Shown piece after piece: positions 1,827-33,759 of a stretch of DNA of 64,000 nt (its first letter is position 1; each line of letters opens with the position of its first letter). The DNA lies in the NCBI GenBank assembly GCA_963663895.2, contig CAXXRD010000004.1, positions 1-64,000 on the forward strand, in the 5' to 3' direction. Source of the DNA: Dehalococcoidia bacterium. Lineage in GTDB: Bacteria > Chloroflexota > Dehalococcoidia > Bin125. Made by a program: the position numbers and the translations under genes. The notes beneath the pieces are model-generated. The model was not told where the DNA came from. It saw only the letters and a list, made by a program, of their open reading frames with translations, and made no database searches.

Positions 1827-3686
<1,860 letters not shown>

Positions 3687-5945: not shown

Positions 5946-7358
5946 GTGCAAGCAACGTCAGATGAGCGCTCCTTGGCGCAAGCGACGATCGAGGAGATCG
6001 GGGAACGGATCCGGCAGCGGGATCTGTCGCCGGTAGAGGTCACGCAGCTGACGCTCGATCGGATCGGGCGCCTCAACTCGACGATCAACGCCTACTACAC
6101 GGTCTTCGGCGAGCAGGCGCTGGCGCTGGCGCGCGCCGCGGAGGCCGAGATTGCGGCGGGAGTGTACCGGGGGCCGTTGCACGGGATTCCGATCGCGATC
6201 AAGGACATCTACGAGGGCGGGCGGACGACGTGCGGGAGCAAGCCACTGTCGGGGTATGTCGCGGAGCGGGAGTGCGCGGCGGTGCGGCGGCTGCGGGCAG
6301 CCGGAGCAATCGTAGTGGGGAAGACGGCGACCTACGAGTTCGCGTTCGGAGTACAGACGCGCGCGTCGCACTTCGCACCGACGCTGAACGCGTGGGACGT
6401 GCGCCGGGAGTGCGGCGGGTCGAGCAGCGGCACGGCCGGGGCGATCGCGGCGGGGCTGGCCTATGCGGGCATGGGGACATGTAGTGGCGGTTCGATCCGC
6501 TGGCCGGCGCAGTGCTGCTTCCACGTGGGCTTGAAGCCGACCTACGGACGGGTCAGCCGAGCGGGCATCTATCCGCTGGCGTGGAGCTTGGACCACCCGG
6601 GGCCGCTGGCGCGCACGGTGACCGACACCGTCTACATGTTGCAAGGGTGCGCCGGCTACGATCCCGACGATCCCGCTTCCGCGGATGTGCCCGTGCCGAA
6701 TTTCGCCTCGAAGCTGGGCCGTGCGATCAAGGGAATGCGGATCGGGGTGCTGCGCGACCTGTTCGAGGAGGGCTGTGATCCCAAGGTGCGCGCGACCTTC
6801 GAGGCGGCCTTGCCGGTCTTCGAGCGGCTGGGGGCGCGCATCGTGACGGTGCCGACGATCTCACACGCGCAGCTGACGGCGATCGCGCTGCCGCTGCTCT
6901 GGAGCGAGGCCGGCGCGATCCACCGGAGCAACCTGCGGCAGAGCGGGGGCGACTACAACCCGCATACGCGGCAGTCGCTGCTGTGGGGGCTGTTGGTGAG
7001 CGCCGGTTACAGCAACCTGGCCAACCGCGCCCGCGCGCAGGTGACGGCGGCGCTGCAACAGGCCCTGCATGCGCAGGCCGACGTTTTCGTCTTGCCGACG
7101 ACGTGCTTCCAAAGCCCGCCGCTGGTGCTCGACGATACGCCGGGGTTTGGGGCTCGGCTCGGCCGGGGAGCCTTGCACACCGCGATCTTCAACATCACGG
7201 GGGCGCCGGCGATCCAAGTGCCGTGCGGGTGGGATGCGGACGGATTACCGGTCGGGATGCAGATCAGCGCCGCCGCTTTCGACGAAGAAACGATGGTGCA
7301 GGTGGCGTACGCGTACGAACAGGAAGCGGGCTGGTTCCGCCAGCGACCCGATATCTAG
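5946..7358 (+). CDS. Amidase-signature family enzyme
   Basis: GPLHGIPIAIKD (Lys), GGSSSG, GGSIR (nucleophile Ser), GLKPTYGRVS and GLPVGMQI. Confidence 0.92.
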   Translation: MQATSDERSLAQATIEEIGERIRQRDLSPVEVTQLTLDRIGRLNSTINAYYTVFGEQALALARAAEAEIAAGVYRGPLHGIPIAIKDIYEGGRTTCGSKPLSGYVAERECAAVRRLRAAGAIVVGKTATYEFAFGVQTRASHFAPTLNAWDVRRECGGSSSGTAGAIAAGLAYAGMGTCSGGSIRWPAQCCFHVGLKPTYGRVSRAGIYPLAWSLDHPGPLARTVTDTVYMLQGCAGYDPDDPASADVPVPNFASKLGRAIKGMRIGVLRDLFEEGCDPKVRATFEAALPVFERLGARIVTVPTISHAQLTAIALPLLWSEAGAIHRSNLRQSGGDYNPHTRQSLLWGLLVSAGYSNLANRARAQVTAALQQALHAQADVFVLPTTCFQSPPLVLDDTPGFGARLGRGALHTAIFNITGAPAIQVPCGWDADGLPVGMQISAAAFDEETMVQVAYAYEQEAGWFRQRPDI

Positions 7359-7379
7359 CAAGCGGCGCCGAGGGAGCGC

Positions 7380-7952
7380 TTACTCGTCGTGGACGAAGCG
7401 GGGCGCGGTGCGGTCACGGGGGTCGGGATCGAGGCCGAGATAGCGGCGGCGGAGGTCGTCCCACAGGGTGAGACGGGTCCAGTCGGAGCTCACCGGGTGT
7501 TGGTCGTCCTCATCAAGAAGGGGGTTGGGAAGGAAGACCGTGAGCTGCTGCTCGCCCTGACCGTTAAAGAGCCGCAGGCCCCAGGAAACCGGGCGGGCAG
7601 CGGGATCGAGACGGCGGTAGAACTCGGCGCGGGCGGTGCGACGGTGGTGGGCGAGCTGGGGATCGACGGGCCGGTCGAGCCCGTGATGGGCGTCGATGCA
7701 GAGATGCAGGTGCCAGGCGTCGAAGGCCACGGTGAGATAGCCGTCGAGCATGGCGACGGTGACCGGCGCGGCCGGGGCGCGAATCTCCAGTACGGAACCC
7801 TGAATGAGAATGCCGAAGCGGATCGCGGCCCAGTGATCGCGGAAGAGCTCCGTGCACAGCGGGACCAGCGTCGTGGCGGAGGTGTCGAGGGGAAAGAGCT
7901 CGAGAGTGCCGTTGCCAGGCTCGGTCACAACGCGGCTGCTGTCGGCGCCCAT
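7380..7952 (-). CDS. Uncharacterised His-rich protein, last gene of the NHase operon (possible HemS/ChuX-like fold)
   Basis: The ATG at 7952 overlaps the upstream stop (TGATG). Motifs WHLHLCI and SWGLRLFNGQGEQQLTVFLPNP. The fold assignment is an inference. Confidence 0.7.
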   Translation of the reverse strand: MGADSSRVVTEPGNGTLELFPLDTSATTLVPLCTELFRDHWAAIRFGILIQGSVLEIRAPAAPVTVAMLDGYLTVAFDAWHLHLCIDAHHGLDRPVDPQLAHHRRTARAEFYRRLDPAARPVSWGLRLFNGQGEQQLTVFLPNPLLDEDDQHPVSSDWTRLTLWDDLRRRYLGLDPDPRDRTAPRFVHDE

Positions 7953-8806
7953 CAGAAGATCTCGTCGCGCTCGCCGAATTCGTACTCGTTGGTGCGCTCG
8001 CTGATCTCCGGATCGAGCGCCATCCCTTTCTCGGCCAGGATGTCCTCGAAAGCGGCCAACCAACAGGCGTAGTAATCGAAGGGATCCTGCCCGCGCTCCG
8101 CCTCGGCGATACGATCGATCAGGCGCTCGCGAAACTCGTCCCAGGTGTAGACGTGCCGCTCCTCCAAGGCGGCCGCCATGCCGAAGACGCGCCCGTGCCA
8201 GGGGGCGTCAAAGACGAGTTCGCCGTTCTTGCGCGGCAAGGCGGCGGCGTCCTGCCAGCGTGCGAGCGCGCGCTCGGGCGGCTCCGCGCCCGCGTTTCGA
8301 TCGTCCCCGGGGCGGGCGGCGGGCATGGGACAGGCGGCGCTCTGCACGGCCAGGCGGCGGCGCCAGTCGCGGCGATCGTCGAGGGGGAGGCCGTCGGGGC
8401 GGGCCTGCCACTGCGACGCAGTGAAGTGGAGATCCGCCAGCGGCGCGGGGGGCGGAAGGTAGGCGTCGGCGTCGAGCATGGCCTCGATGTAGTCGTACAG
8501 AGCGATGATGAGCGACTCGCTGTTGATCGACTGGAACCAAAGGGCGCGTCCGTCGAAGAGAAGCAGGGCGACGTTGGCGAGGGCGCAGGGGCCGAGGCAG
8601 CCGCCGATCGAGAGGTGGACGATGTTGCGAAAGCGGCGGCGCTCCCATTCGGCGTGGTAGAGCGCGGCCGGCACGGGGGCGAAGCCGTCGTCGGTGCGGC
8701 CGCAGCAGCAGCCGGACTCGCACACGAAGAGCATGCCGCGCATGCGGGCGACGTTGACGAGGACGCCGTCCGGGCGCGTGACCAGATTGCGGCGGCGCTG
8801 CAGCAT
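7952..8806 (-). CDS. Fusion of a Cys-rich thioredoxin-like [2Fe-2S]-ferredoxin-type domain with a nitrile hydratase accessory (P14K-like) domain
   Basis: N-terminal LFVCESGCCCG...GGCLGPCALAN. C-terminal LPRKNGELVFDAPWHGRVFGMA...WDEFRERLI...YYACWLAAFE. Confidence 0.8.
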   Translation of the reverse strand: MLQRRRNLVTRPDGVLVNVARMRGMLFVCESGCCCGRTDDGFAPVPAALYHAEWERRRFRNIVHLSIGGCLGPCALANVALLLFDGRALWFQSINSESLIIALYDYIEAMLDADAYLPPPAPLADLHFTASQWQARPDGLPLDDRRDWRRRLAVQSAACPMPAARPGDDRNAGAEPPERALARWQDAAALPRKNGELVFDAPWHGRVFGMAAALEERHVYTWDEFRERLIDRIAEAERGQDPFDYYACWLAAFEDILAEKGMALDPEISERTNEYEFGERDEIF

Positions 8807-8809
8807 CCG

Positions 8810-9409
8810 TCAGCCGACGGTAGCCGGCGCTTTCACCGGAGCGACGCCGACGAGGGCGTCGCGGGTGATGAGCGGAAGAAGCGCCTCCTCGGTGAGGTGC
8901 TCGGTCCCTGCCGGCCGCTGGGGCAGCACCATGTAACGCAACTCGGCGCTGGAGTCCCAGACACGGACCTCCCGTTGCTCGGGGATCTCCAATCCGAACT
9001 CGCGCAGGAGCGCGCGCGGCTCGATAACGGAGCGGGCACGGTAGGCGGGGGACTTGTACCAGCTGGGAGGGAGTCCCAACACGGGCCAGGGGTAGCAAGA
9101 GCACAGGGTGCAGACGACGAGGTTGTGCACGTCGTCCGTATTCTCGACCACGACCAACAGGTCGTACTTGAGGTCGAACTGCGCGAGCGCCGCCGCGGAG
9201 TCGTCCAAGAGGAGACGCTTGTAGTCCGGGTCGGTCCAGGCCTTGGCCACGGCGCGGGCGCCGACCATCGGCCCGGTGTCGTTTTCGTAACGGCTGACCA
9301 ATTGGTCGACCGCGCCGGGGGCAAGGACGCCCTTCTCCAAAAGGAGCGACTCCAACGCTCGCACGCGCGAGACGACGTACTCCTCAACGTTGGGATGGTT
9401 CTTGCCCAT
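8810..9409 (-). CDS. nthA: Nitrile hydratase alpha subunit, cobalt type
   Basis: Metal-binding motif VCTLCSCYPWPVLGLPP. Thr and Tyr at these positions mark the Co type. Confidence 0.96.
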   Translation of the reverse strand: MGKNHPNVEEYVVSRVRALESLLLEKGVLAPGAVDQLVSRYENDTGPMVGARAVAKAWTDPDYKRLLLDDSAAALAQFDLKYDLLVVVENTDDVHNLVVCTLCSCYPWPVLGLPPSWYKSPAYRARSVIEPRALLREFGLEIPEQREVRVWDSSAELRYMVLPQRPAGTEHLTEEALLPLITRDALVGVAPVKAPATVG

Positions 9410-9433
9410 CGCTGCCTCCCTGCGATCCGGCCA

Positions 9434-10129
9434 CTACCCAGCCGCCGCCGGCTCGATGTAGCTCTCCCAGAGGTCAACATAGACGGCGTCGCGGTGCGCT
9501 GCCGACTCACCCCAGAGCTCCTCCGCTTCGAAGCGGACGTTGTAGACGTGGTCGGGCTCTTCGCCGCGCCCATGGGCATTGGCGTCCGGGAAGACGAAGC
9601 AGCCCTGATGCCGGTGCACGCGGCCGCGCTTACCGCGCACGTAGCGGGCGAGGCGGGTGTGGCCGGCAGGCTGCCAATGTTTGGTGAGGACGGTGTCGCC
9701 GATCGCAAAGCGCGGCGGGGCGGAGGCTTCGCGGCGGAAGGGATGGCCGCGGCGGCGGTCCAGCGCCGGGTGGACAAACTCCGTCTCGCCGGGGGTGGCG
9801 GAGGGAGGAGTGGGGAATGCTTGCGGGTCGTCCTGGAAAGCGGCCGCGCGCCGCTCCAACTCGGCCGCGTCGATGACGCCCTTTTCAATGAGCAGGCGGT
9901 CGATGGCGGCGAGCCAGCGTTCGTAATAGGTCGCGTTGAGGTATTCGTCCGGAGACATGCGCTCGATGCTGTGGCGGAGTTCGTCGAGGTTGTAGAGGCG
10001 CTGGCCGAGGGCCGTGAGCTGGACCGCGAGGACGGTCCGCTCCCAGTCGGCATGAAAGAGCGGCTCGCGCGGGTCGTGCTCGACGCCGCCGAAGCCGTGC
10101 ATTCCGCCGAGGTCGTGGATTCCGTTCAC
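9434..10129 (-). CDS. nthB: Nitrile hydratase beta subunit
   Basis: The GTG start gives MNGIHDLGGMHGFG. DELRHSIERM and GHTRLARYVRGKRG retain both catalytic Arg residues. Ends in VYVDLWESYI. Confidence 0.95.
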   Translation of the reverse strand: MNGIHDLGGMHGFGGVEHDPREPLFHADWERTVLAVQLTALGQRLYNLDELRHSIERMSPDEYLNATYYERWLAAIDRLLIEKGVIDAAELERRAAAFQDDPQAFPTPPSATPGETEFVHPALDRRRGHPFRREASAPPRFAIGDTVLTKHWQPAGHTRLARYVRGKRGRVHRHQGCFVFPDANAHGRGEEPDHVYNVRFEAEELWGESAAHRDAVYVDLWESYIEPAAAG

Positions 10130-10286
10130 AGCAGCGCTTTCGGCGGCGGGCTGGGGAACCCGCGTGCTCGGGAAACATGGGAAGTATAGCGGCGGGGCGA
10201 GGAGCGCCGTTGACCGCGATGCGATACTGGGAAACCGCGCGGTGGAAGGGCGCGGCCGAGTGACGAGAGCACTGGAGGGCCGAGCG

Positions 10287-11099
10287 GTGACGAAGCGCAT
10301 CAAGGTAGTAGCGTGCACGGGCGAGGAGAACACGGCGAAGTACCAGATCCCGCCGGAGATCATCAGTCCAGGCTTCACGGTGGACTTCGAGACGACGCGG
10401 TTCCCGGTCTGGCCGGACAATTACGTCGACTACCGGTTGGTGCAGCTCAGCATCTTGGACGTGGCGCTGTCGGCCGAGCGAGAGGGGTTCGACGCGGTCT
10501 TCGTCTGTGACAGCACGGACCTGGGCTTGGCCGAGGTGCGAAGCGCGCTCACGATCCCCGTGGTCGGCGGCGGGCAGGCGACGCTGCAAGTGGGGCTGGC
10601 GTTGGGGCGGCGGCTGGGCATCGTCACGGTGTGGCCGTCCGATGTGCGCTTCTGGTACGACGACATGCTGCGCGAGTACGAGCTGAGCGACAAGCTGGCC
10701 GGCGTGCGACACATCACGCGCTACGACGAGCTGCAGACCCTCGGTTCAGACGAGAGCTGGCTGAAGCGCATGTGGAATCACCAAGACGACTTTCTGGCTC
10801 GCGTCGAGGAGCAGTGCCGCCTCGTCATCGACGAGGACGGAGCGGACGTGGTGATGCTCGGCTGCACCTGCATGGCGGCGATCCGGAATGCGATGCAGGA
10901 GCGGCTTGAGGTGCCGGTGCTGAGCCCGGTGCACACAGGCTATCAGTTGACCGAGCTGCTTGTGCGGCTGGGGCTGCGCCACAGCAAGAAGGCGTTCGGA
11001 CAGATGGGGCCCGTGACGCGCTCGATGATCCACCCCATGATCGAGGAGGCGGCGTCGCGGCAGACGATCATGGAGTTCGCACCCGCCGGCGGCGACTAA
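10287..11099 (+). CDS. Asp/Glu/hydantoin racemase family protein
   Basis: AEREGFDAVFVCDSTD and DGADVVMLGCTCM give the two catalytic Cys positions. GTG start behind GGAGGG. Confidence 0.85.
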   Translation: MTKRIKVVACTGEENTAKYQIPPEIISPGFTVDFETTRFPVWPDNYVDYRLVQLSILDVALSAEREGFDAVFVCDSTDLGLAEVRSALTIPVVGGGQATLQVGLALGRRLGIVTVWPSDVRFWYDDMLREYELSDKLAGVRHITRYDELQTLGSDESWLKRMWNHQDDFLARVEEQCRLVIDEDGADVVMLGCTCMAAIRNAMQERLEVPVLSPVHTGYQLTELLVRLGLRHSKKAFGQMGPVTRSMIHPMIEEAASRQTIMEFAPAGGD

Positions 11100-18767: not shown

Positions 18768-18842
18768 TGGAGCCGGCGGGGGGATTCGAACCCTCGACCT
18801 GCTGTTTACGAAACAGCTGCTCTACCTCTGAGCTACACCGGC
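18768..18842 (-). tRNA. tRNA-Thr(CGT)
   Basis: Cloverleaf GCCGGTG-TA-GCTC..GAGC-A-GCTGT-TTCGTAA-ACAGC..GAGGG-TTCGAAT-CCCCC-CGCCGGC-T-CCA. Confidence 0.96.
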
Positions 18843-22471: not shown

Positions 22472-23800
22472 ATGGCACGTGAGACGACGGCGTACGTCCT
22501 GGCAACGGCGCAGGAGCACGACGTCCGCTTCATCCGTCTGTGGTTCACAGACATCCTGGGGTCCTTGAAGTCGTTCGCGATCACGGTGGACGAGTTGGAG
22601 ACGGCGCTCGACGACGGCGTCGCGTTCGACGGGTCGTCGATCGAGGGGTTCGCCCGCAGCGACGAGTCCGACATGATCGCGCGTCCAGACCCGGGGACGT
22701 TCGTGGTGCTGCCCTGGCGCCCGCACGAGGACCGGGTTGCGCGGATGATCTGCGATATCACTTGGCCGGACGGGCGCCCGTTCGAGGGCGACCCGCGCTA
22801 CGTCCTGCGCCGCACGCTGCAGCGGGCACGGGCGCTCGGCTACACCTTCTATGTGGGTCCCGAGCTGGAGTACTTCTATTTCCGGGGAGCCACCGACCCG
22901 GAGCCGCTGGATGCCGGGGGCTACTTCGATCTGACGCCGCTCGACGCGGCCAGCGATCTCCGCCGCGAGACGGTGCTGACGCTGGAAGAGATGGGGATCT
23001 CGGTCGCGTCCAGCCATCACGAGGTGGCGCCGAGCCAGCACGAGATCGGGTTGCGCCATACGGACGCGCTCACGATGGCCGACAACACGATGACGTACCG
23101 GCTGGTGGTGAAGGAGATCGCGCTCAAGCACGACGTGTACGCGTCGTTCATGCCGAAGCCGTTGTCGAACGTGAACGGGAGCGGGATGCACGCGCACCAG
23201 TCGCTCTTCCACGGCGAGGTCAACGCCTTCTTCGACGAAGACGGCCCGGCCCACCTCTCCCAGGTGGCGCAGCGGTACATCGCGGGGCTGCTGCGCCACG
23301 CGCCGGAGCTGACCTTGCTCTGCAACCAGTGGGTGAATAGCTACAAGCGGCTGCGTCCGGGGTTCGAAGCGCCCGCCTATCTGACATGGGCGAGGCGGAA
23401 TCACAGCGACCTGATTCGCATCCCAGAGGCCGCCCCCGGCCGACCCGAGGCGGCCCGCGTTGAGTACCGGGCGGCGGACCCGGCTTGTAATCCGTACTTC
23501 GCGTTCAGTGCCCTGCTGGCGGCAGGTCTGCAGGGGATTCAGCAGGAGTACCGGCTGCCGCCTGAGACCGTGGACGACGTGTCGTTGCTCGGCGAGGAGG
23601 AGCGGCGCGCTCGCAATGTCGAGCGGCTGCCGGGCACGATGGGCGAAGCGATCGATCTGTTCGCGCGGAGCGATCTGATGCGCGCCACCCTGGGCACGCA
23701 TGTGTTCGAGAGCTTCTTGCGCAACAAGCGCATTGAGTGGGACGCGTACCTCGGACAGGTGACGGATTTCGAACGGGAGCGGTATCTGCCCGTGCTCTAG
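22472..23800 (+). CDS. Second glutamine synthetase-family protein (alpha-like; possible gamma-glutamyl-amine ligase)
   Basis: FDGSSIEGF, HHEVAPSQHEI, NGSGMHAHQS, PGFEAP and RVEYR. Lacks the beta insertion. Confidence 0.9.
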   Translation: MARETTAYVLATAQEHDVRFIRLWFTDILGSLKSFAITVDELETALDDGVAFDGSSIEGFARSDESDMIARPDPGTFVVLPWRPHEDRVARMICDITWPDGRPFEGDPRYVLRRTLQRARALGYTFYVGPELEYFYFRGATDPEPLDAGGYFDLTPLDAASDLRRETVLTLEEMGISVASSHHEVAPSQHEIGLRHTDALTMADNTMTYRLVVKEIALKHDVYASFMPKPLSNVNGSGMHAHQSLFHGEVNAFFDEDGPAHLSQVAQRYIAGLLRHAPELTLLCNQWVNSYKRLRPGFEAPAYLTWARRNHSDLIRIPEAAPGRPEAARVEYRAADPACNPYFAFSALLAAGLQGIQQEYRLPPETVDDVSLLGEEERRARNVERLPGTMGEAIDLFARSDLMRATLGTHVFESFLRNKRIEWDAYLGQVTDFERERYLPVL

Positions 23801-25332
23801 GTGCCCGGGAAGAGCATCGCGGTGGAGTGCTCGATCGCCTTGAAGAGTGGGGTGGGGTAGAGGCCGACGAAGAAGACGGCGGCGGTGAGCACGGCGATCG
23901 CACCCGTCATGGGCACCGGCACATGCAAGCGACTCGCTGCAGTGTCGGCAGGCTTGTACAGATAGATCTGCTTGATCACCATCAGGTAGTAGTAGAGCGA
24001 AACAAAGGAGGCGGTGACGCCCATAGCGGCGAGCCAGAGGAAGCCGCTGTCGGCAGCTGCCTGGAAGAGGATAAATTTGGTCACGAAGCCGGCGAAGAGT
24101 GGCATCCCGGCCAGGGAGAACAGGCCGACGGCGATGGCGAGGGCAAGGAAGGGTTGCCGCTCCGCCAGTCCGCGCAGGTCGGCGATGTCGTCGCGGCCCG
24201 TGCGATTGTAGAAGGCAATGAGCGCGGCGAAGACGGCGATGTTGGTGGCGACGTAGCCCACGAGGTGCAACACGAGCGCGCTGGCGGCGGCGTGCGAGTT
24301 GGCCAGGGTATCGGCATGCAGGGCCACGATGCCCACCAGCAGGTACCCGACTTGGGCGATCGACGAGTACGCCAGCAGCCGCTTCATGTTGGTCTGCTGT
24401 AGCGCCATGAGGTTGCCCACGATCATCGTCCCGGCAGCGACGATGGCGACGAGCCAGACCCACTCGGCGCTGGCCGGCATGAAGGCCTCGGCGAAGAGCC
24501 GGAGGAAGAGCGCGAAGGCAGCGGCCTTGCCGCCCGCACTGAGGAAGGCGGTGATGGGCAGCGGCGCCCCTTGGTACGCATCCGGGGTCCACTGGTGGAA
24601 GGGAACCGCCGAGACTTTGAAGCCGAGCCCGGCGACGACCAACACCAGACCGATGATGAGGCCGGGCCGGACGTCCGCCGCCGCGGGGAGAGCGGGATCG
24701 GGGATCGCGGCGCCGAAATTGCCAAGCTGCGTTGCGATATTGCGCGCGGCCTCCACCCCGTCCGGGTCGATGGGACCGTAGGTGGTGGTGCCGGTCACCC
24801 CGTAGATCATGCTGAGGCCGTAGAGGAAGAGCGCCGACGAGAAGGCGCCGAGCAGCATGTACTTCAGGGAGGCTTCGTTAGAGAACGGGTTGAGTTTATT
24901 GAAGCCGACGAGGATGTAGAGGCTGAAGGAAAGGAGCTCCAGCGCGATGTAGGCGGTGATCAGCTCGCGGGCGCCCGCCATGAGCATCATGCCCAGCGTG
25001 GCGAAGAGGATCAGGCCGTAGTACTCGCCGTGGTTCTTGAGACGATCGGCGGCGAACTGCATGCTGGCGAGGATGGTGAAGAAGGCAATGCCCAGGAAGA
25101 AGATGCGGAAAAGTACGGTGTAGTTATCGACGGCGATGATGTTGGCGAAATCATCGTTGACGTTGATGTAGAAGACGGCGGTGAGCACGAGGAGGGCGAA
25201 GACCGCCGCCGCCGCGCCGTAGCCGAGGAACTCTTGGCGCAGCCGAGGGAAGCAGAGGGCCACGGCCACGATGAGCGTGGCGAGCCCCGCCATCACAAAC
25301 TCCGGTACGACTAGTTCGTATTCAAAGTCCAT
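23797..25332 (-). CDS. nuoN: NADH-quinone oxidoreductase subunit N
   Basis: GFKVSAVPFHQWTPDAYQGAP and KRLLAYSSIAQ. Confidence 0.95.
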   Translation of the reverse strand: MDFEYELVVPEFVMAGLATLIVAVALCFPRLRQEFLGYGAAAAVFALLVLTAVFYINVNDDFANIIAVDNYTVLFRIFFLGIAFFTILASMQFAADRLKNHGEYYGLILFATLGMMLMAGARELITAYIALELLSFSLYILVGFNKLNPFSNEASLKYMLLGAFSSALFLYGLSMIYGVTGTTTYGPIDPDGVEAARNIATQLGNFGAAIPDPALPAAADVRPGLIIGLVLVVAGLGFKVSAVPFHQWTPDAYQGAPLPITAFLSAGGKAAAFALFLRLFAEAFMPASAEWVWLVAIVAAGTMIVGNLMALQQTNMKRLLAYSSIAQVGYLLVGIVALHADTLANSHAAASALVLHLVGYVATNIAVFAALIAFYNRTGRDDIADLRGLAERQPFLALAIAVGLFSLAGMPLFAGFVTKFILFQAAADSGFLWLAAMGVTASFVSLYYYLMVIKQIYLYKPADTAASRLHVPVPMTGAIAVLTAAVFFVGLYPTPLFKAIEHSTAMLFPGT

Positions 25333-25333
25333 G

Positions 25334-26854
25334 TCAGTCGATGATCCCCGGGAGCTTATCGGCAGGGCTGCCGATCTGCTCCACCTGCGGCAGCTCGTTC
25401 ACGGAGACGGAAATGCGGTCGACAAAGGGCGCGGGCCAGACGCCCATGGCGACGATGCCGGCGATGAGGGTCACGCCGGCCAGCGCCTCGTAGGGCCGAA
25501 GGTCGCGCAGGCTTTCCCACTTGGCGTTGAAGGGACCCAGGGCGGCACGGCCCATCAGCCGCAGGATGTAGACAGCGGTGACGGCGGCGGAAAGCACGCC
25601 GATGGCGGCGAAGAGCGGGAAGGCGTCGAAGGCGCCAACGAAGATGTGGAACTCAGCGACGAAGCCGCTGAGGCCTGGTAAACCGAGCGAGGCCAAGCCC
25701 GCGATGCCGAAGAAGATCACGAAGAGCGGCATTTTACGGATGATGCCGCCGAAGGCGTGAATGTCGCGGGTGTGGGCCTGATCGTAGATGGCGCCCACCA
25801 TGGCGAAGAAGAGCGCCGTCATGACGCCGTGGCTGAACATCTGGAGAACGGCGCCGTTCACCCCGATGGTGTTCATGGTGCCGAGGCCCATGAGCACGAA
25901 GCCCATGTGGCTGACCGAGGAGTAGCCGATCACGAACTTGAGGTCGTGCTGGTGCAGGGCGGAGAAGGCGCCGTAGATGGCGGCAATCGCGCCGAGGACG
26001 AGCAGCACGGGCATCCAGAATTCCGTCCCGGCGGGGAGCAACTCGATGCCGAGGCGGACGATACCGAAAGCGCCGAGCTTCATCAGGACGCCCGCGTGCA
26101 GCATCGAAACGGCCGTAGGAGCAGCGACATGGCCGTCGGGCGACCACGTGTGGAAGGGCCAGAGACCGGCGAGGACCCCGCAGCCGATCATGAAGAAGGG
26201 GAAGAAGGTCTTGGAGAAGCCGGCATCGAACTCGACCTGTCCCAGCGCCGGCAGGTCGAAGGTGCCGAGACCGGCTTCGATGAAGACGGCGAAGATCCCG
26301 ATAAAGATCAGGACGGAGCCGCCGACCAGCACCATCATCAGCTTCATGGCGCCGTACTCTTTGTTGGTGCTGCCCCAGATGACGATCAGGAGATACATGG
26401 GCAGGACGGCGAGTTCGTAGGCGAAGAACCAGAAGAAGAGATCTTGGGCGATGTAGACGCCGAAGACGCCGGTGACGAGGAAGAGGAAGAGGAAGAAGAA
26501 GTGCTTGTTGCGGTAGTCGATCTTCCAGGAGACGAGCGCGCCCGTGAAGGCGACGATGCCGTTGAGGAGGACGAGGGGGGCGGCGATCCCGTCGACGGCG
26601 AGGTGGAGGGAGATCCCGTTCTCTCGGAGGAAGGCCACGTTTTCGAGCCAGACGTAGCGGAGGTCGAACTGGAGTCCGCCTTCTTGGTAGTCGTAAAGAG
26701 CGAAGATGTAGATGGAGTCGATGAAGGTGGCGAGCGTCGCCAGGAGCGCGATGGCGCGGACGGCGTTCTTGTACTGCGACGGCAGCAGCAGGATGGCAAG
26801 CGCGGCGCCAGCGGGGATCAGCAGCAGGAGGAGAAGGGTTTCACCCGCGTCCAC
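25334..26854 (-). CDS. nuoM: NADH-quinone oxidoreductase subunit M
   Basis: WPFHTWSPDGHVAAP, YSSVSHMG and LGLPGLSGFVAE. Confidence 0.95.
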   Translation of the reverse strand: MDAGETLLLLLLIPAGAALAILLLPSQYKNAVRAIALLATLATFIDSIYIFALYDYQEGGLQFDLRYVWLENVAFLRENGISLHLAVDGIAAPLVLLNGIVAFTGALVSWKIDYRNKHFFFLFLFLVTGVFGVYIAQDLFFWFFAYELAVLPMYLLIVIWGSTNKEYGAMKLMMVLVGGSVLIFIGIFAVFIEAGLGTFDLPALGQVEFDAGFSKTFFPFFMIGCGVLAGLWPFHTWSPDGHVAAPTAVSMLHAGVLMKLGAFGIVRLGIELLPAGTEFWMPVLLVLGAIAAIYGAFSALHQHDLKFVIGYSSVSHMGFVLMGLGTMNTIGVNGAVLQMFSHGVMTALFFAMVGAIYDQAHTRDIHAFGGIIRKMPLFVIFFGIAGLASLGLPGLSGFVAEFHIFVGAFDAFPLFAAIGVLSAAVTAVYILRLMGRAALGPFNAKWESLRDLRPYEALAGVTLIAGIVAMGVWPAPFVDRISVSVNELPQVEQIGSPADKLPGIID

Positions 26855-26902
26855 TGTTCCTCCTACTTTGTGCCGCGCCGCGCCGCTGCGGCCAGCGATT
26901 GA

Positions 26903-28834
26903 CTAGAGCCGGACGAGGAAACCCAGGGCACCGGCGGCGGCGATGCCCAGCACCATGAAGAGCGCATAGTCAGGGATGCGGCCGGTCACGTGGTATCGCA
27001 TCCAGGAAGCGCCGTAGCGCGTGAAGTCGGCAGGGCCGTTGATGCCGGTGTCGTTGACGACCACGCGGTCGAAGACGGCGACGGCGCGGCCGGCGGGAAG
27101 GACGAGGCGGTCGATGGCGGCCTGATAGAGATCGTCCATGTAGAACTTGTTCTGCACGAGCACGGTCACGGGGGGAGCAAAGGCCGCGAGACGCTGAGCG
27201 CGCTCGGCCCTGCCCCAGAACAGCCAGAAGGCAGCGCCGATGCCGGCCAGGGAAGCGACGCCGGTCGCGGCGGCGATCGTGTCGTCGAAGTGGAAGGTTT
27301 CCGGGAGAGGGAAGTAGACGTAGTTGTTGATGCCGCCGGGGAACCCGAGCGCGCGGCCGACTTGGTCGAAGGCGAAGAAGCCCACGAGCAGGGTCAAGAC
27401 GGCGAGGATCAGGAGCGGTCCCACCATCAGGAGCGGCGCTTCCCGGGCGCGCCGGATCATGGCGAGATCCTTGGGCGAGCCGAGGAAGGTGATGATCACG
27501 AGCCGGGCCATGTACAGCGCGGAGAGGAACGCGGCCAGGCCCATCAGGATGAGGACCACATCACTCTGGTAGGCGTTCACAACCACGAAGATCTCATCCT
27601 TGGAGAAGAAGCCGGCTAAAGGCGGAATGCCCGCCAGCGCAAGCGCGCCGATGGCGAAGGTGAGGGTCGTGATCGGCATGCGCCACCAGAGGCCGCCGAG
27701 CCGGCGCGCGTCCTGCTCCTCCGTCATGTGGATCACGGAGCCGGATCCGAGGAAGAGGAGCGCCTTGAAGACAGCGTGGGTAAGGAGATGGAAGATCGCC
27801 ACCCCCACGGCGCCGGCGCCGAGCGCCACGAACATGAAGCCGAGCTGGCTCACCGTGGAATAGGCGAGTACGCGCTTGATGTCCGTCTGGACGAGGGCGA
27901 GCACGCCCGCGAGCAAGGCCGTGGTCAAGCCGACGGCGGTCACGACCTGCAGCGCCCCGGGCGTCGCATCGAAGAGGGGAAGGAGCCGGGCGACGAGGTA
28001 CACGCCCGCGACCACCATGGTGGCCGCGTGGATGAGAGCGCTGACGGGCGTGGGGCCCTCCATGGCGTCCGGGAGCCACACGTGGAAGGGGAATTGGGCG
28101 CTCTTGCCCATCGCGCCGAGGAAGACCATCAAGGTCGCCAGGATGAGATAGCCATCGCTCATGACGGGGGCGAGATCGTTGGTGCGACCGGCCTGCGCGG
28201 CGGCGATGATGTCGCTGATCTGGAAGCTCCCGGTCGCGCGCCAAAGAAGAATGATGCCGATGAGGAGGCCGACATCGCCGAGGCGAGTGGTGACAAAGGC
28301 TTTCTTGGCCGCCTCCACCGCCGATCGCTTCTCGTAGTAGAACCCGATCAGCAAGAAGGAGCAGAGTCCGACGCCCTCCCAAGCGATGTAGAGGAATAGG
28401 AGATTGTCGGCGAGGACCAAGGCGAGCATCGCAGCGACGAAGAGGGAGTGCACCGCGAAGTACCACCAGTAGCGCGGTTCCGGCTTGCCGTGGTGTCGCA
28501 TGTAGGCAACCGAGTAGATCTGCACGAGGAGCGCGACCAGGGTGACGACGCCGAGCATGACGAGGGCGATCGAGTCCACGGTGAAACCGATGCGCAGCGT
28601 GAAGCCCTCAAACTGCAACCAGTTGAAGCCGACGTTGGAGAGGCCGCCCAAGCCCGCCTGGATGGAGTCGAGGTGGGCTTCCAGCACGAAGAAAAAGAGC
28701 ACGAAGCCGCTGGCGATGGCGGTGATGGAGAGCCAGTCGCCGCCGCGGGGGATCCTGTTTCCCAGGACAAAGAGCGCGATAAAGGCACAGGCGGGGATCG
28801 CGGGGATGATCCAGGCGTGGTCGAGCCAGTACAT
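26903..28834 (-). CDS. nuoL: NADH-quinone oxidoreductase subunit L
   Basis: GKSAQFPFHVWLPDAMEGPTPVSALIHAATMV. Confidence 0.97.
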   Translation of the reverse strand: MYWLDHAWIIPAIPACAFIALFVLGNRIPRGGDWLSITAIASGFVLFFFVLEAHLDSIQAGLGGLSNVGFNWLQFEGFTLRIGFTVDSIALVMLGVVTLVALLVQIYSVAYMRHHGKPEPRYWWYFAVHSLFVAAMLALVLADNLLFLYIAWEGVGLCSFLLIGFYYEKRSAVEAAKKAFVTTRLGDVGLLIGIILLWRATGSFQISDIIAAAQAGRTNDLAPVMSDGYLILATLMVFLGAMGKSAQFPFHVWLPDAMEGPTPVSALIHAATMVVAGVYLVARLLPLFDATPGALQVVTAVGLTTALLAGVLALVQTDIKRVLAYSTVSQLGFMFVALGAGAVGVAIFHLLTHAVFKALLFLGSGSVIHMTEEQDARRLGGLWWRMPITTLTFAIGALALAGIPPLAGFFSKDEIFVVVNAYQSDVVLILMGLAAFLSALYMARLVIITFLGSPKDLAMIRRAREAPLLMVGPLLILAVLTLLVGFFAFDQVGRALGFPGGINNYVYFPLPETFHFDDTIAAATGVASLAGIGAAFWLFWGRAERAQRLAAFAPPVTVLVQNKFYMDDLYQAAIDRLVLPAGRAVAVFDRVVVNDTGINGPADFTRYGASWMRYHVTGRIPDYALFMVLGIAAAGALGFLVRL

Positions 28835-28869
28835 CTAGGCGCTTGCCCTCCGTTGGCCCTGCCGCCTGC

Positions 28870-29187
28870 CTACCATTTGAGCAGGTTCACTTCGTCGACG
28901 TTGGCGGTGGCGCGGTTGCGGAAGAGGCGGACGACGATGCCGAGCGCCAGCGCGACCTCCGCCGCGGCCACCACCACGATGAAGAACGCGAAAATGATGC
29001 CCGTGAACGTGTTGTCGAACGCGACGCGGCCGTAGATCGCGAAGGCCACCATGTTGATGCTCACCGCGTTCAGCATGAGCTCGACGGACATCAGGATGTT
29101 CACCGCGTTGCGGCGGGTGAGCACGCCATAGACGCCGATCGAGAAGAGGATGGCGCTGACGACGAGGACGTGCTCAAGCGGCGGCAT
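28870..29187 (-). CDS. nuoK: NADH-quinone oxidoreductase subunit K
   Basis: LMSVELMLNA and VAAAEVALAL. Confidence 0.95.
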   Translation of the reverse strand: MPPLEHVLVVSAILFSIGVYGVLTRRNAVNILMSVELMLNAVSINMVAFAIYGRVAFDNTFTGIIFAFFIVVVAAAEVALALGIVVRLFRNRATANVDEVNLLKW

Positions 29188-29690
29188 TACTGCTCTCCTT
29201 GGTCGGGTTGGGAGAGGAGGATGGCGCCGGCCATGGCGATCACGAGGACCACGGAGATCACCTCGAAGGGCACGGCCCAGGCGCTGAAGAGCACATCGCC
29301 GATCTCCTGGAAGGGGACTGGCTCGATGTCGTCCGGGTTAGCAGTCGCCCACTCCGAGGCGACGATCCCGGCCACGAAGGCCGCCAGTAAGCCGGCGGCG
29401 ATGGTGAAGGCGATCGGGCGGTTCTTGCCGAAGAGGGCCTGAGGCCGCTCGCGGGCGCGCGTCAGCATGAGCGCAAAGAGCACCAACATGATCACGGCGC
29501 CGCCGTAGACGACTAACTGGGTAAGTGCGAGAAACTCGACCGTCAGGATCACGTAGATCCCTGCGACGGCGCCGAGGGCGAGAATGAGCGCGAGGGCGGA
29601 GTGGACGATGTTGCGGGCGAGAACTACCCCGAGGCCGCCGCCGATCATGACGAAGGCAATGCCGTAGAAGACGATTTCCGTTGCGCTCAC
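29187..29690 (-). CDS. nuoJ: NADH-quinone oxidoreductase subunit J
   Basis: QLVVYGGAVIML and PFEVISVVL. Confidence 0.93.
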   Translation of the reverse strand: MSATEIVFYGIAFVMIGGGLGVVLARNIVHSALALILALGAVAGIYVILTVEFLALTQLVVYGGAVIMLVLFALMLTRARERPQALFGKNRPIAFTIAAGLLAAFVAGIVASEWATANPDDIEPVPFQEIGDVLFSAWAVPFEVISVVLVIAMAGAILLSQPDQGEQ

Positions 29691-29700
29691 GCAGCGCTCC

Positions 29701-30909
29701 TCAGTCGCCGCCCGCCGGGTCGTGGGCGGTAATCAGCCGCGGACGCGCAGGCTGCTTGTTGAGGGAGCGCCCGGCACCGCGCGACAGCGTTCGGACGCGA
29801 CCGTAGACCAATCCGATCAAGAGCAGGAGCAGCGCCAGCGAGGTGATGCCGATGATCCACTCGCCGCCGCCGTACGCCAGGATGATGGCGTTGGCGAGCA
29901 CCTGCACGATGGAGAAGGGCAGCAGCACTTTCCAGGAGAACGCCATCAGTTGGTCGATGCGCAGCCGTGGCAGCACGGCACGCGACCAGAAGAGGACAAA
30001 GATGACCGCCGCAGTCTTGGCGATGGTGAGCAGCACCTGCAGGCCGAGGCCTACATCCTCTCCGAAGGGGAAGTTCCAGCCGCCGAGGAACACGGTTGAG
30101 CCGATCACCACGAGCAACAGTAACGCCGTGTACTCCGCCAGGAAGAAGAAGCTCCAGCGGATGCCGCTGTATTCCACGAAGTAGCCGCCGACAACCTCCG
30201 ATTCCGCGATGGGCATGTCGAAGGGGGGGCGATGGAGCTCCGCGAGGGCGCCGATCATGAAGATCGCGAAGCCCAGGGGTTGCAAGAGGAGAAAGGGAGT
30301 TGTGGTCTGCTCGAGCGCGATGACGTTGAGGTTCACGGCCCCGAAGGCACTGCCGCCATCGACCGTCAGTCGCGCCGCCACGACGAGGATCACCCCCACG
30401 CTGACGAGCAGCATCGGCAGCTCGTAGGAGATGGCCTGGGCGGCCGCCCGGACGGCTCCAAGCAGCGCGTACTTGTTGTCCGAGCCCCAGCCCGCCATCA
30501 CCACCCCCACCAAGTTCAACCCCAGCACCCCGAAGACGTAGAGAAAACCGAGCTCCAAGTCCCGCACGATCCAGGTCTCGGTCCAAGGGATGGGAATGAA
30601 GACGAGAAAGATGGGGACGAAGGCGAAGTAGGGCGCCAGCTCAAAGACCCAGCGGTCGGCCGAGGCAGGACGTACGTCTTCCTTCGTCAGCAGCTTGAGC
30701 GCGTCGGCAAGCGATTGCAGCATGCCGAAGGGACCGGTTCGTGTCGGTCCGACGCGCTGCTGGAAGCGCGCCAAGATCTTGCGCTCCAGATAGATGAGTG
30801 CGAGAGCGTTCACCGTCATCAACGCCACGATGAACACGATCCGGATCAGCGCGTCGATCCAGTCCGGCAAGCCCAGGCCAGCGAATTCACTCAGCACGAT
30901 CTCTGGCAT
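29701..30909 (-). CDS. nuoH: NADH-quinone oxidoreductase subunit H
   Basis: ERKILARFQQRVGP, AQAISYE and PFDMPIAESE. Confidence 0.96.
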   Translation of the reverse strand: MPEIVLSEFAGLGLPDWIDALIRIVFIVALMTVNALALIYLERKILARFQQRVGPTRTGPFGMLQSLADALKLLTKEDVRPASADRWVFELAPYFAFVPIFLVFIPIPWTETWIVRDLELGFLYVFGVLGLNLVGVVMAGWGSDNKYALLGAVRAAAQAISYELPMLLVSVGVILVVAARLTVDGGSAFGAVNLNVIALEQTTTPFLLLQPLGFAIFMIGALAELHRPPFDMPIAESEVVGGYFVEYSGIRWSFFFLAEYTALLLLVVIGSTVFLGGWNFPFGEDVGLGLQVLLTIAKTAAVIFVLFWSRAVLPRLRIDQLMAFSWKVLLPFSIVQVLANAIILAYGGGEWIIGITSLALLLLLIGLVYGRVRTLSRGAGRSLNKQPARPRLITAHDPAGGD

Positions 30910-31024
30910 GGTGTGTTCAGGCCCCGCCTCACCCGCCCCAGGGCGGCTCGCTCGCTGGAGGCAGGCTACTGGCTCCTACAAGGAAGAGCCAGAGCGCAAG
31001 CTCACAACGAAGAAGAATGGCATG

Positions 31025-32176
31025 TCAGCGATCGACTTCGCAGAGCACGATGTCGACGGATCCCAGGATGATCACGGCGTCGGCGATGTAGGAGCCCCGG
31101 ACCTGGTGCCGGAGCGCGCTGAGGTTGTGGAAGCTGGGACTGCGGACCTTCATCCGCCAAGGCTTGTCGGAGCCGTCCGACACCATGTAGATACCGTACT
31201 CGCCGCGCGGGTTCTCCTGGCGCATGTAGATCTCGCCCGGCGGCGGCTTTAAGACCTTGGGCAAACCCTCGGCCATGATCGGGCCGCTGGTGGGCATCTG
31301 ATCGAGCGCTTGCGCCACGATGCGAACCGACTGCCGCATCTCTTCCAGGCGCACCAGATAACGATCGTAGACGTCGCCCCGTAGACCGGTGGGCACTTCC
31401 CAGTCGAAGCGGTCATAAATCGAGTAGGGCTCGTCGACGCGGAGATCGAGCGGCACGCCAGCGGCGCGCAGCAGCGGTCCGGTGACTCCGTAGCTGATCG
31501 CGTCTTCGGCCGACATCCGGCCCACATCTCGGCAGCGCGAGATCATGATCTCGTTATTGGTCATGAGTTCGTCAATGTCGGCGATGCCGGCTTCGATCTG
31601 CCCAAGCAGCCAGCGCGCGTCCTCCACGAAGGTTGGGTAGGGTTCCCAGGCAAGACCGCCGACGCGGAAGTAGTTGTACATGAGGCGGTCTCCGCTGACG
31701 GCCTCGAAGAAGTCTTGGATGCGCTCGCGCTCTTTGAAGGCCCAGGTGAAAGCCGTGCCGAAGAAGCCGACATCGGTGCCGAAGGCGCCCAGGAACATGA
31801 AGTGCGAGAGGATGCGGTTGAGCTCGGCGAGGATGAGGCGAACGTACTCGGCGCGCTCGGGCGCTTCGATGCCGGCCAGCCGCTCGATGGCGTTGCAGTA
31901 GACCCACTCGTTGTTGAAAGCGGCAAGGTAGTCGGTCCGGTCTTGGTAACCCAATGCCCCGCGGTAGTCGAGGTTCTCGGTGAGCTTCTCACCACCACGA
32001 TGCATGTAGCCGATGTACGAGGTGACGTCTTTCACTTGCTCGCCGTCGACGGTGAGGACCATGCGGAAGACGCCGTGGGTCGAGGGATGCTGCGGACCCA
32101 TGTTGATGTTCATATCGACCGTGTCGAACTCTTCTTCGACGACGACCGGCTCGACGGTGACCTGCGCCTGCGTCAT
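31025..32176 (-). CDS. nuoD: NADH-quinone oxidoreductase subunit D
   Basis: NMGPQHPSTHGVFR, RTDY and ENPRGE. Ends DIVLCEVDR. No NiFe CxxC motifs. Confidence 0.96.
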   Translation of the reverse strand: MTQAQVTVEPVVVEEEFDTVDMNINMGPQHPSTHGVFRMVLTVDGEQVKDVTSYIGYMHRGGEKLTENLDYRGALGYQDRTDYLAAFNNEWVYCNAIERLAGIEAPERAEYVRLILAELNRILSHFMFLGAFGTDVGFFGTAFTWAFKERERIQDFFEAVSGDRLMYNYFRVGGLAWEPYPTFVEDARWLLGQIEAGIADIDELMTNNEIMISRCRDVGRMSAEDAISYGVTGPLLRAAGVPLDLRVDEPYSIYDRFDWEVPTGLRGDVYDRYLVRLEEMRQSVRIVAQALDQMPTSGPIMAEGLPKVLKPPPGEIYMRQENPRGEYGIYMVSDGSDKPWRMKVRSPSFHNLSALRHQVRGSYIADAVIILGSVDIVLCEVDR

Positions 32177-33199: not shown

Positions 33200-33759
33200 G
33201 CGCCAGCCGCCCGGTCCTCCATGATCTTTTCTTGGAGGGCGAGAAGGCCGTCCATCAGGGACTCGGGGCGCGGGGGGCAGCCTGGCACGTACACATCGAC
33301 GGGGATGATGTTGTCGGTGCCCTGGAGCACGCGGTCGTATTGGGTGTAGGGGCCGCCGTTGGTGGCACAGGCGCCCATCGCGATGACCCACTTGGGATGG
33401 GGCATCTGCTCATAGAGAAGCTTCACGGCCGGGGCCATCTTCTTGGTGACGGTCCCGGCGACGATCATGACGTCGCTTTGGCGCGGGGAGGGCCAGGGGA
33501 CGATCCCCATGCGATCGAGGTCGTGGTTGGACATGTAGGTCGCGATCATCTCGATGGCGCAGCAGGCAAGGCCGAAGGTCATGGGCCACAGCGACGATTT
33601 CCGCGCGGCGGCAATGACCGCATCAGCGGGCACCTGCATCACGCCAGGCAGGATCTCCTTGTAGAGGACCTGTGGCCGCTCGGCATCGGAGGGAAACAGG
33701 CGCAGCGCCTCAGAGGGAGTCGAGGACGAGACTAGCTCGCCGGGATGCGCTTGGGCCAT
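33196..33759 (-). CDS. nuoB: NADH-quinone oxidoreductase subunit B
   Basis: [16 protein letters not shown] and VPGCPPRPE (N2 ligands). Confidence 0.96.

Follow-up and report, generated by a model that had tools for sequence, protein, structure and literature searches.

We describe a cobalt-type nitrile hydratase (NHase) operon carried by a 64,000-nucleotide stretch of a Dehalococcoidia bacterium genome (Chloroflexota; GenBank assembly GCA_963663895.2, contig CAXXRD010000004.1, positions 1 to 64,000; the whole stretch is called the window). Behind the beta and alpha subunit genes, this operon encodes a fusion protein, in which a cysteine-rich N-terminal domain (the Cys domain, or N-domain) is joined by a linker to a P14K/NhlE-like accessory domain, and a fourth protein of the DUF7676 family (gene 4, Table 1). 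There is nothing new in kind about the accessory protein, the NHase or the ferredoxin fold; the main new point is that one and the same Cys domain is shared by the NHase activator and by CobN cobaltochelatases. Taken together, the extra parts of the operon point to a cobalt-handling kit that has not been described. In the literature we searched, which covered few subscription journals, we found neither a fused activator nor a Cys domain common to CobN and NHase, nor the B12-regulon and NHase contexts of DUF7676.

The fusion is a widespread natural architecture and is not peculiar to the genome of the window. At E ≤ 1e-3, homologues of the fusion formed 968 clusters (90% identity) among 8000 scored candidates, and the best 120 of these clusters, from several sources, were all 276–300 aa long, with 99–100% query coverage and 57–99% identity. 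Named homologues go by 'nitrile hydratase accessory protein', or by 'cobaltochelatase CobN' in JGI records; as a label for the fusion, the latter is wrong. Species-representative genomes contained 26 matching loci, and the whole fusion was present in five of them (L001–L005), all metagenome-assembled genomes (MAGs) of Chloroflexota/Dehalococcoidia, where it directly followed the beta and alpha genes in every case. The gene order of the high-GC loci L002–L005 was determined by tblastn with the proteins of the window, and genomic context counts here and below rest on samples and on BLAST with few queries. The counterpart in L001, from a Chloroflexota MAG, is 96% identical to the fusion of the window, and two metagenome loci (L047 and L062) are likewise NHase operons bearing the Cys domain. 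In plasmids of cultured bacteria, 113 records matched and none of them covered 80% or more of the fusion, which agrees with the original prediction that known activators normally stand alone. The plasmid matches to the C-terminal half were 'nitrile hydratase accessory protein' genes that stand alone (in Rhodococcus, Parageobacillus, Streptomyces and others), and those to the N-terminal half fell within annotated CobN genes, including ones on Deinococcus, Spirosoma and Granulicella plasmids.

The original prediction had also named a lost-stop artefact, absent from relatives, as what would overturn it. We give almost no weight to an assembly or lost-stop artefact: the same architecture recurred in at least 120 clusters and in five independent assemblies (5/5 genome loci), and the frame is open and includes an invariant inter-domain motif. 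The lost-stop idea was rejected because conserved fusions are widespread and both domain orders are known, with the N-domain first in, for example, P0127 and the accessory domain first in P0139, P0140 and P0151. Two longer representatives, P0169 (443 aa; alpha fragment, N-domain, P14K-like domain) and P0139 (408 aa; beta-like part, P14K-like domain, N-domain), are perhaps merged gene calls. The Chloroflexi MAG locus L005 lacks DUF7676 behind the fusion and has in its place a convergent gene for an ABC-3 (ZnuB/MntB-type) metal-ion permease (L005:3259-4563, minus strand).

Because it also forms the N-terminus of CobN cobaltochelatases, we read the Cys domain as a portable accessory of machines that insert cobalt; the recurrent fusion to CobN is an independent context that supports a cobalt-related role. 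Pfam annotation of 34 representatives showed that full-length CobN (P0141, 1484 aa; P0160, 1449 aa) and CobN fragments have the domain at their N-terminus; further fusions joined it to the accessory protein, in either order, and in one case to YHS and HMA domains, and it often stood alone. When 150 listed representatives were classified by BLAST, the domain preceded CobN in 13 and the P14K-like domain in six (one with a piece of alpha in front), and followed the P14K-like domain in three (one with a piece of beta in front); the remaining 128 showed the domain only and include many fragments, so that 'alone' is an upper bound. Among the 21 genome loci that matched the N-terminal half only, 20 carried the domain in frame about 110 codons before CobN. 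These 20 loci belong to four Herpetosiphon genomes (three named species), Caldilineaceae, Roseilinea, Thermoflexus and a Bryobacteraceae MAG, and the one locus left over is a stand-alone copy in Dictyobacter. The domain was found in 59 of the 401 genomes of our phylum sample, with most strong matches in open frames of 1412–1575 aa. CobN-borne and NHase-borne domains share 52–59% identity in 19 of the 20 loci and 63% in the remaining one (L006).

Two of the CobN contexts are informative about what accompanies the domain. On plasmid 2 of Deinococcus deserti, the gene for CobN with the Cys domain lies within a de novo cob cluster, and a cobW-family gene (PF02492, 2.3e-43) and a 'nickel transporter' gene are just upstream. 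Because a cobW-family gene co-occurs in this cluster, the Cys domain is not merely a replacement of CobW. In Herpetosiphon aurantiacus (CP000875), a 378-aa CobO adenosyltransferase is encoded just upstream of the domain-bearing CobN (L009:4850-5986), and it has a PF01257-like thioredoxin-like 2Fe-2S domain at its own N-terminus (E 3e-5, 24.4 bits, slightly under the cut-off of 24.8). CobO-type adenosyltransferases require an electron donor (CobA/flavodoxin).

Model and profile comparisons support a thioredoxin-like fold of the [2Fe-2S] ferredoxin family for the N-domain. Searched in isolation (residues 1–141) against Pfam and NCBIfam at E ≤ 10, the domain gave chance-level matches only. An exhaustive phmmer search of 1.84 billion representatives retrieved 410 proteins at E ≤ 1e-3, and an alignment of 40 of them (A1) was the basis of both the structural model and the profile. 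The AlphaFold2 model reached a pLDDT of 92.7 and a pTM of 0.84, and the top ranks of its Foldseek search against the PDB were all thioredoxin-like [2Fe-2S] proteins, namely NDUFV2/NuoE, HydC/HydB, the thioredoxin-like ferredoxin of R. capsulatus (9jn8, TMt 0.66) and Aquifex Fd4 (1m2a, TMt 0.62). The A1 profile matched A. vinelandii FeSI in the PDB (5abr, E 5.1e-6) together with two N-terminal 2Fe-2S domains of hydrogenase HydB, and in the profile alignment C29, C35, C70, C74 and the GCLGPC motif coincide with the corresponding cysteines of these proteins. With the single fusion as the query, phmmer against the PDB returned NHase beta for the C-terminal half and 5abr at 0.34. The thioredoxin-like character proposed earlier for the Cys-rich domain is borne out by the Foldseek ranking and by the four aligned ligand cysteines. 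Of the domain-wise HMM and structure searches that had been suggested, those on the C-terminal half identified a family (TIGR03889), and the N-terminal half remained without a Pfam family and was recognised as ferredoxin-like by Foldseek and the profile.

In a protein-language-model atlas, the neighbours of the N-domain were DUF1636 clusters (0.95), in which 18–26% of the members carry DUF1636, and PF07845 weakly matched eight of the 40 A1 members (best E 0.009). On these comparisons the N-domain appears to be distantly related to DUF1636, at best as a sister group. DUF1636 was earlier related to thioredoxin-like 2Fe-2S ferredoxins (PMC4520260); in Phaeobacter it is the riboswitch-controlled first gene of a cobalamin operon and was called 'potentially involved in cobalt insertion' (bioRxiv 10.64898/2025.12.19.695462).

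The cysteines of the fusion are at positions 29, 33, 34, 35, 70, 74, 159 and 248, which reproduces the C-x3-CCC...C-x3-C pattern of the N-domain and the additional linker Cys (C159) noted in the original prediction. C29, C33, C34, C35, C70 and C74 are invariant in all 29 aligned fusions, as are the motif FTASxWQxRPDGxPxDD at the tail of the N-domain and the C-terminal EFEFGER. The linker is 35–58 aa long and its sequence is not conserved; at least one Cys is found in it in 28 of the 29 fusions, often as H-x-C.

For the accessory half, residues 199–268 match TIGR03889 (nitrile_acc; 6.6e-22, 77.3 bits against a cut-off of 46), in accordance with the P14K-like assignment made earlier; the beta-like domain as such covers residues 190–275. 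This half also matches PF21006 (1.1e-13) and, by phmmer, the Co-NHase beta chain 3qyh_B (3e-4), and its gene lies directly downstream of the structural genes, as expected for the P14K/NhlE type. By homology, the accessory half is expected to hold alpha and to mediate cobalt insertion or subunit swapping. For Co-type activators, a role as self-subunit swapping chaperone has been described, a redox function has been proposed and a metallochaperone function has been reported (PMC7193024). A complex prediction for the fusion, alpha and DUF7676 scored 0.00 in two runs without controls and has no bearing either way.

Gene 4 is a full-length member of DUF7676 (PF24724, 3.8e-64, 215.5 bits against a cut-off of 27, profile positions 2–166 of 166). 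The earlier description of the protein as His-rich was overstated: nine of its 190 residues are His (4.7%), and H83 alone among them is invariant. Among 30 homologues (53–76% identity), all have H83 and C85, 29 have H81 and 28 have H188, and many Arg and Trp residues are invariant too. In the AlphaFold2 model (pLDDT 93.0), H81, H83 and C85 are located on one beta strand (residues 81–85; W-H81-x-H83-x-C85). Foldseek matched this model to the heme binders HutX, ChuX and HemS, with HutX 5exv at 1.2e-5, and the VIA comparison gave 3na2 (Z 10.0, rmsd 3.8 over 130 residues), 5exv (Z 9.7, rmsd 3.1 over 120), 2ph0 (Z 9.1) and 3fm2 (Z 8.3), with the next unrelated rows at 5.3 or lower. The atlas neighbours of gene 4 were ChuX_HutX/LFE_1968-like clusters, and the ChuX/HutX family profile itself, PF06228, did not hit gene 4 at E ≤ 0.01.

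Nor is gene 4 specific to NHase; besides the fold of a heme/tetrapyrrole binder, it has relatives mostly in uptake operons under cobalamin riboswitches. DUF7676 occurred in 10 of the 401 genomes of the phylum sample, and in five of seven genome regions its gene directly followed those of a FecCD permease and an ABC ATPase; two of these also had CobN/ChlID nearby. In locus L021 the gene order is BtuF-like, FecCD, ABC, DUF7676, CobQ, CbiZ, CobO, CobN with the Cys domain, CbiB and aminotransferase. Among 80 metagenome DUF7676 loci, four are NHase operons, two with the Cys domain (L047 and L062) and two with a plain accessory protein (L064 and L067); a FecCD or ABC-ATPase gene is present in about 22 of the 80, and the others have no neighbour recognised by the few BLAST queries. 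Pfam annotation of 43 neighbouring open reading frames (ORFs) from 16 loci showed a TonB-dependent receptor immediately upstream in seven, and genes for NicO, CobW_C, CbiZ and a PduO-type adenosyltransferase were also near DUF7676. A cobalamin riboswitch was present in 11 of the 13 DUF7676 loci tested. DUF7676 ends a Co-NHase operon in eight loci, namely the window, L001, L002, L004, L047, L062, L064 and L067. Like the Cys domain, gene 4 can be read as a portable cobalt-handling part that was recruited to the NHase operon.

Some neighbours of DUF7676 deserve mention in their own right. A protein of about 205 aa without a Pfam hit is encoded directly after DUF7676 in three loci (L105:5590-6195, L115:5614-6231 and L107:3690-4307). 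Judged by eye, it resembles a multi-pass membrane protein, with a conserved Cys, as 'ACA(V/T)P', in the first hydrophobic stretch, and the operons combine a cobalamin riboswitch, a TonB receptor and DUF7676, which makes it a candidate inner-membrane transporter of that uptake path. In L107, the genes for the TonB receptor and DUF7676 flank a small ORF (L107:2516-3025, P0397) with FC..GC and ECLGEC motifs and a PF01257 E-value of 0.012; it may be another thioredoxin-like ferredoxin paired with DUF7676, and its hhalign comparison with A1 (probability 26%, E 7e-4) is too weak for a claim. A FecCD–ABC...DUF7676 corrinoid-salvage cluster (L086) encodes an FhuF-like protein with a 2Fe-2S C-terminal motif (L086:3395-4279; FhuF_C 3.2e-5) between CbiZ and a PduO-type adenosyltransferase.

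The genome of the window (2.37 Mb in five contigs, 91% complete) gave no hit for NicO, CbiM, CobN or CobO, and its cobW-family genes are located only on contigs C2 and C1, one of them lying on another contig than the operon. The DUF7676 gene of the operon is the single copy in this genome. A near-threshold cobalamin riboswitch-like element (31.0 bits vs 31.5) is found elsewhere in the genome (G000:C1:744915-748800, L162), followed by BtuF-like, FecCD and ABC ATPase genes and no DUF7676; a 375-aa ORF without a Pfam match fills the slot that holds DUF7676 in relatives.

As the best explanation of these findings, we propose that the Cys domain may be a [2Fe-2S] redox module in NHase maturation. 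We hold this tentatively and would put it somewhat short of an even chance, a grading that covers an explanation in which we infer the cofactor, the redox role and the cobalt hand-over. The accessory half would hold apo-alpha as a surrogate of beta, by homology with self-subunit swapping chaperones (PMC7193024). The N-domain would carry a Cys4-bound [2Fe-2S] centre on C29, C35, C70 and C74, and the flexible, Cys-bearing linker would tether this ferredoxin-like domain so that it can act at the cobalt site. There it would handle the one-electron and thiol redox side of maturation, keeping the ligand cysteines of alpha reduced so that Co(II) can enter, and then accepting or donating electrons during the conversion of Co(II) to Co(III) and cysteine oxygenation. 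Gene 4, a predicted cytoplasmic protein of HutX/ChuX fold from the B12/cobalt regulon, would have been recruited to supply cobalt to the complex, and it probably binds a cobalt species through the H-x-H-x-C strand and the C-terminal His. We favour the redox role because all four ligand positions of proven Fe-S homologues are kept, because the Cys domain coexists with CobW, because sister enzymes of the same clusters recruit 2Fe-2S domains, and because Co-NHase maturation has an unexplained redox side, namely the oxidation of Co(II) to Co(III) and Cys oxygenation. In reviews, details of Co-NHase maturation are said to be lacking (PMC7193024, PMC11672702).

Several observations weigh against this proposal. 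The window N-domain had no hit to PF01257 or PF07845 at E ≤ 10, it scored 14.5 bits against NF041613, far below the cut-off of 195, and the Foldseek E-values were modest (1e-3 to 1e-2, TM about 0.45–0.66). The fusions conserve more cysteines than a 2Fe-2S site needs, with C33 and C34 invariant and a linker Cys in 28 of 29. To our knowledge, metal insertion as such does not call for electrons in either CobN or the accessory protein. Some members of the domain family are found in other metal contexts: the metal-binding domains YHS, HMA or TRASH are the fusion partners in P0219 (282 aa; N-domain, YHS, HMA) and in two of the 40 A1 members, and in Dictyobacter aurantiacus a stand-alone 152-aa copy lies beside a ZIP metal transporter gene, with a P-type ATPase 3.7 kb upstream (L025:4822-6456) and no CobN or NHase genes at the locus. 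The extra cysteines, these fusions and the Dictyobacter neighbours fit direct metal binding at least as well. As to gene 4, its fold and importer context fit a corrinoid binder, which would have no obvious job at a non-corrin cobalt enzyme. DUF7676 is missing after the fusion in two of the five genome loci (L003 and L005), and in a DUF7676 tree labelled by context five of the eight NHase-linked copies group together at 85/85 and no single supported clade unites them; a single origin of the NHase-linked copies is neither shown nor excluded.

Direct metal binding leads to a reading that is nearly as good and ranks just below the redox one, possible in our view if on balance doubtful. Here the Cys domain would bind Co(II) at a thiolate-rich hand-over site without an Fe-S cluster, as a nucleotide-independent counterpart of the CxCC site of COG0523 proteins, and cobalt would pass from the pool, CobW or DUF7676 to this site and then through the linker Cys to alpha, or to the corrin site of CobN. 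The invariant triple Cys of GCCCG (29/29) would suit such a site, and so would the retention of a linker Cys, often as H-x-C, in 28 of 29 otherwise unconserved linkers. The YHS, HMA and TRASH fusions and the ZIP and P-type ATPase neighbours in Dictyobacter point in the same direction. Both fusion partners are cobalt insertases and correspond to the client pair of COG0523, where CobW serves CobNST and Nha3 serves Fe-NHase; the same review leaves room for an intermediary between CobW and CobNST (PMC11672702), and the metallochaperone function reported for Co-type activators would also agree (PMC7193024). What speaks for the redox module instead is that the four 2Fe-2S ligand positions of the homologous ferredoxins are all kept and aligned, that C33 is variable outside the fusions, and that the close homologues with known function are all Fe-S proteins. 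A further reading, which we regard as clearly unlikely, makes the domain a sensor or gate, with a cluster that would respond to O2, redox or Fe-S status and turn the accessory protein and CobN on or off, or a mere stabiliser. Where thioredoxin-like ferredoxins have surface-exposed clusters, these are labile, the interchangeable domain order demands no precise geometry, and there are chelatases with Fe-S clusters of unclear role (CbiX-long, ferrochelatase). Nothing specific favours it, however, and both the strong conservation between the CobN and NHase contexts (52–63% identity) and the conserved linker Cys, which suggests active chemistry, argue against it.

For gene 4, we favour cobalt supply through the H-x-H-x-C/His site, and the main rival is that it binds and traffics corrinoids or tetrapyrroles in the cytoplasm, as a B12 analogue of HutX/ChuX; its place in the NHase operon would then be incidental or serve an unrelated need. 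The heme-binder fold shared with HutX, ChuX and HemS, with matching atlas neighbours, would suit this role, as would the many invariant Arg and Trp. This applies equally to the positions of DUF7676 after FecCD and ABC ATPase genes (5/7 regions, and about 22 of 80 metagenome loci with either gene) and after TonB receptors, the cobalamin riboswitches in 11 of 13 loci, and the corrinoid-salvage cluster L021 with CbiZ, CobQ and CobO. We nevertheless consider it somewhat unlikely. Eight Co-NHase operons have DUF7676 as their last gene, whether the Cys domain is present or not, and the operon of the window keeps the sole copy of the genome, though the genome's own riboswitch–BtuF–FecCD–ABC operon is without one; the H-x-H-x-C on one beta strand resembles a mononuclear metal site, and the NicO and CobW_C neighbours suggest ionic cobalt. 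A bolder reading, a long shot, joins the two extra parts into a cobalt-salvage route. DUF7676 would take a corrinoid or cobalt chelate from a riboswitch-controlled importer, the ferredoxin-like domain would supply electrons, and the freed cobalt would feed insertases, the NHase activator here and CobN elsewhere, as a cobalt counterpart of heme iron release. If true, this would account for the position of the single DUF7676 in the NHase operon of a genome that gave no hit for NicO, CbiM or CobN.

Judged from its genes, the operon is a working-looking Co-type NHase operon (beta, alpha, activator, DUF7676) paired with an amidase, in a Chloroflexota genome. Beta scored above the curated cut-off of TIGR03888 (2.4e-78, 263.1 bits vs 152.2), and alpha likewise matched TIGR01323 (6.9e-82, 273.6 bits vs 249.85) and PF02979 (4.9e-81). 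In the metal motif of NHases, Thr/Tyr (CTLCSCY) is the cobalt type and Ser/Thr the iron type; VCTLCSCY is present in the alpha translation and invariant in eight of eight aligned alphas, and we take it to mark the cobalt type. The four-gene order with tight or overlapping junctions described in the original prediction was seen as stated: 24 nt separate the beta stop from the alpha ATG, with a GGGAGG Shine-Dalgarno sequence upstream, 3 nt lie between the alpha TGA and the fusion ATG, and the fusion TGA overlaps the gene-4 ATG by one base (TGATG, junction −1 nt). An amidase carries out the next step in nitrile degradation, and its gene also adjoins the operon in L001, L002 and L047; the racemase-family gene holds the same position in L001 and L047.

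Table 1 Genes of the NHase operon, domains of the fusion protein and adjoining genes, with positions in the window.
Feature	Position	Strand	Remarks
NHase beta subunit	9434..10129	-	GTG start, 231 aa; TIGR03888, PF21006 and PF02211
NHase alpha subunit, Co-type	8810..9409	-	199 aa, VCTLCSCY; TIGR01323 and PF02979
Fusion protein (Cys domain, linker, accessory domain)	7952..8806	-	284 aa
Fusion N-domain (residues 1-146), ferredoxin-like, Cys-rich	8369..8806	-	Predicted from fold model, Foldseek and profile vs PDB
Fusion linker (residues 147-188), variable, one Cys (C159)	8243..8368	-	Alignment of 29 fusions
Fusion residues 189-284 and stop, P14K/NhlE-like, beta-homologous accessory domain	7952..8242	-	TIGR03889, PF21006
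Gene 4, DUF7676 protein, HutX/ChuX-like fold	7380..7952	-	190 aa; PF24724, model, Foldseek
Amidase, convergent with the operon	5946..7358	+	PF01425, 7.6e-102
Asp/Glu/hydantoin-racemase-family gene, divergent from the operon	10164..11099	+	PF01177, 4.7e-28

A scan of positions 7200–10500 gave no promoter-like site and three terminator-like sites (1.3 expected), none of them at a gene end. Over the whole window, Rfam found a single tRNA (18771–18842) and no riboswitch before the operon. The absence of a Co transporter or CobW-type GTPase nearby, as claimed before, agrees with Pfam annotation of 26 ORFs between 503 and 37119. The surroundings are ordinary chromosome, and nothing around the NHase operon points to a mobile element. 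They include a run of respiratory complex I genes at 23797–34127 on the minus strand (Proton_antipo_M three times, NADHdh, 49-kDa, 30-kDa, chain 3) and, at 1947–3686 on the plus strand, a 579-aa ORF with both an N6/N4 DNA methylase and an Mrr-type restriction endonuclease domain.

How Co-type NHases acquire cobalt and how their ligand cysteines and Co(II) are oxidised are still described as open (PMC11672702, PMC7193024). Swapping, metallochaperone and 'redox' roles have all been ascribed to the small activators, for which neither a redox site nor a metal site is known. A widespread natural fusion that places a Cys centre of the ferredoxin family on the activator, with the same centre on CobN, is of interest in this respect. 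The supply of cobalt to CobN from CobW has likewise not been directly demonstrated; the fusions offer one concrete, separable module for both systems. The findings also provide a first functional context for DUF7676, in the B12 regulon and in cobalt-enzyme operons, and for the DUF1636-like domain group. In practice, the accessory genes of this operon may aid the heterologous production of active Co-NHases at low cobalt.

Compared with known systems, the fusion is closest in its accessory half to the Co-type activators P14K of P. putida and NhlE/NhhG of R. rhodochrous J1, with which it shares the beta-like sequence, membership in TIGR03889 and the position after the structural genes; it differs from them by an additional 146-aa Cys-rich, ferredoxin-like N-domain and a Cys-bearing linker. 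The N-domain shares its predicted fold, four aligned ligand cysteines and the GCLGPC motif with the thioredoxin-like ferredoxins (FeSI 5abr, Fd4 1m2a, NuoE/NDUFV2 and HydB/HydC; PF01257). Its first loop, however, is short in the profile alignment, with C-x5-C instead of the C-x12-C of FeSI, it has extra invariant cysteines (CCC) and falls below the PF01257 threshold, and it is attached to cobalt insertases rather than to respiratory or hydrogenase modules. DUF1636 (PF07845) of proteobacterial cobalamin operons is likewise related to thioredoxin-like 2Fe-2S proteins and tied to corrin cobalt insertion by gene position; it stands alone and is itself functionally uncharacterised, whereas the N-domain is fused to CobN or the NHase activator and stays below the threshold of that family.

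With the COG0523 proteins CobW and Nha3, the likeness is a functional analogy only. They have the same two kinds of client, a CobN chelatase and an NHase alpha subunit, and they use a Cys-rich CxCC motif where the fusion N-domain has GCCCG (PMC11672702, PMC7193024). The fusion has no GTPase domain and no homology to them, and PF02492 hit neither the fusion nor gene 4. Finally, gene 4 shares its fold with HutX, ChuX and HemS, and both groups are encoded beside importers of the TonB-receptor or FecCD type. In contrast to these heme proteins, gene 4 belongs to a separate Pfam family (DUF7676) with its own H-x-H-x-C motif, and DUF7676 is found under cobalamin riboswitches rather than iron control and has been recruited into Co-NHase operons.

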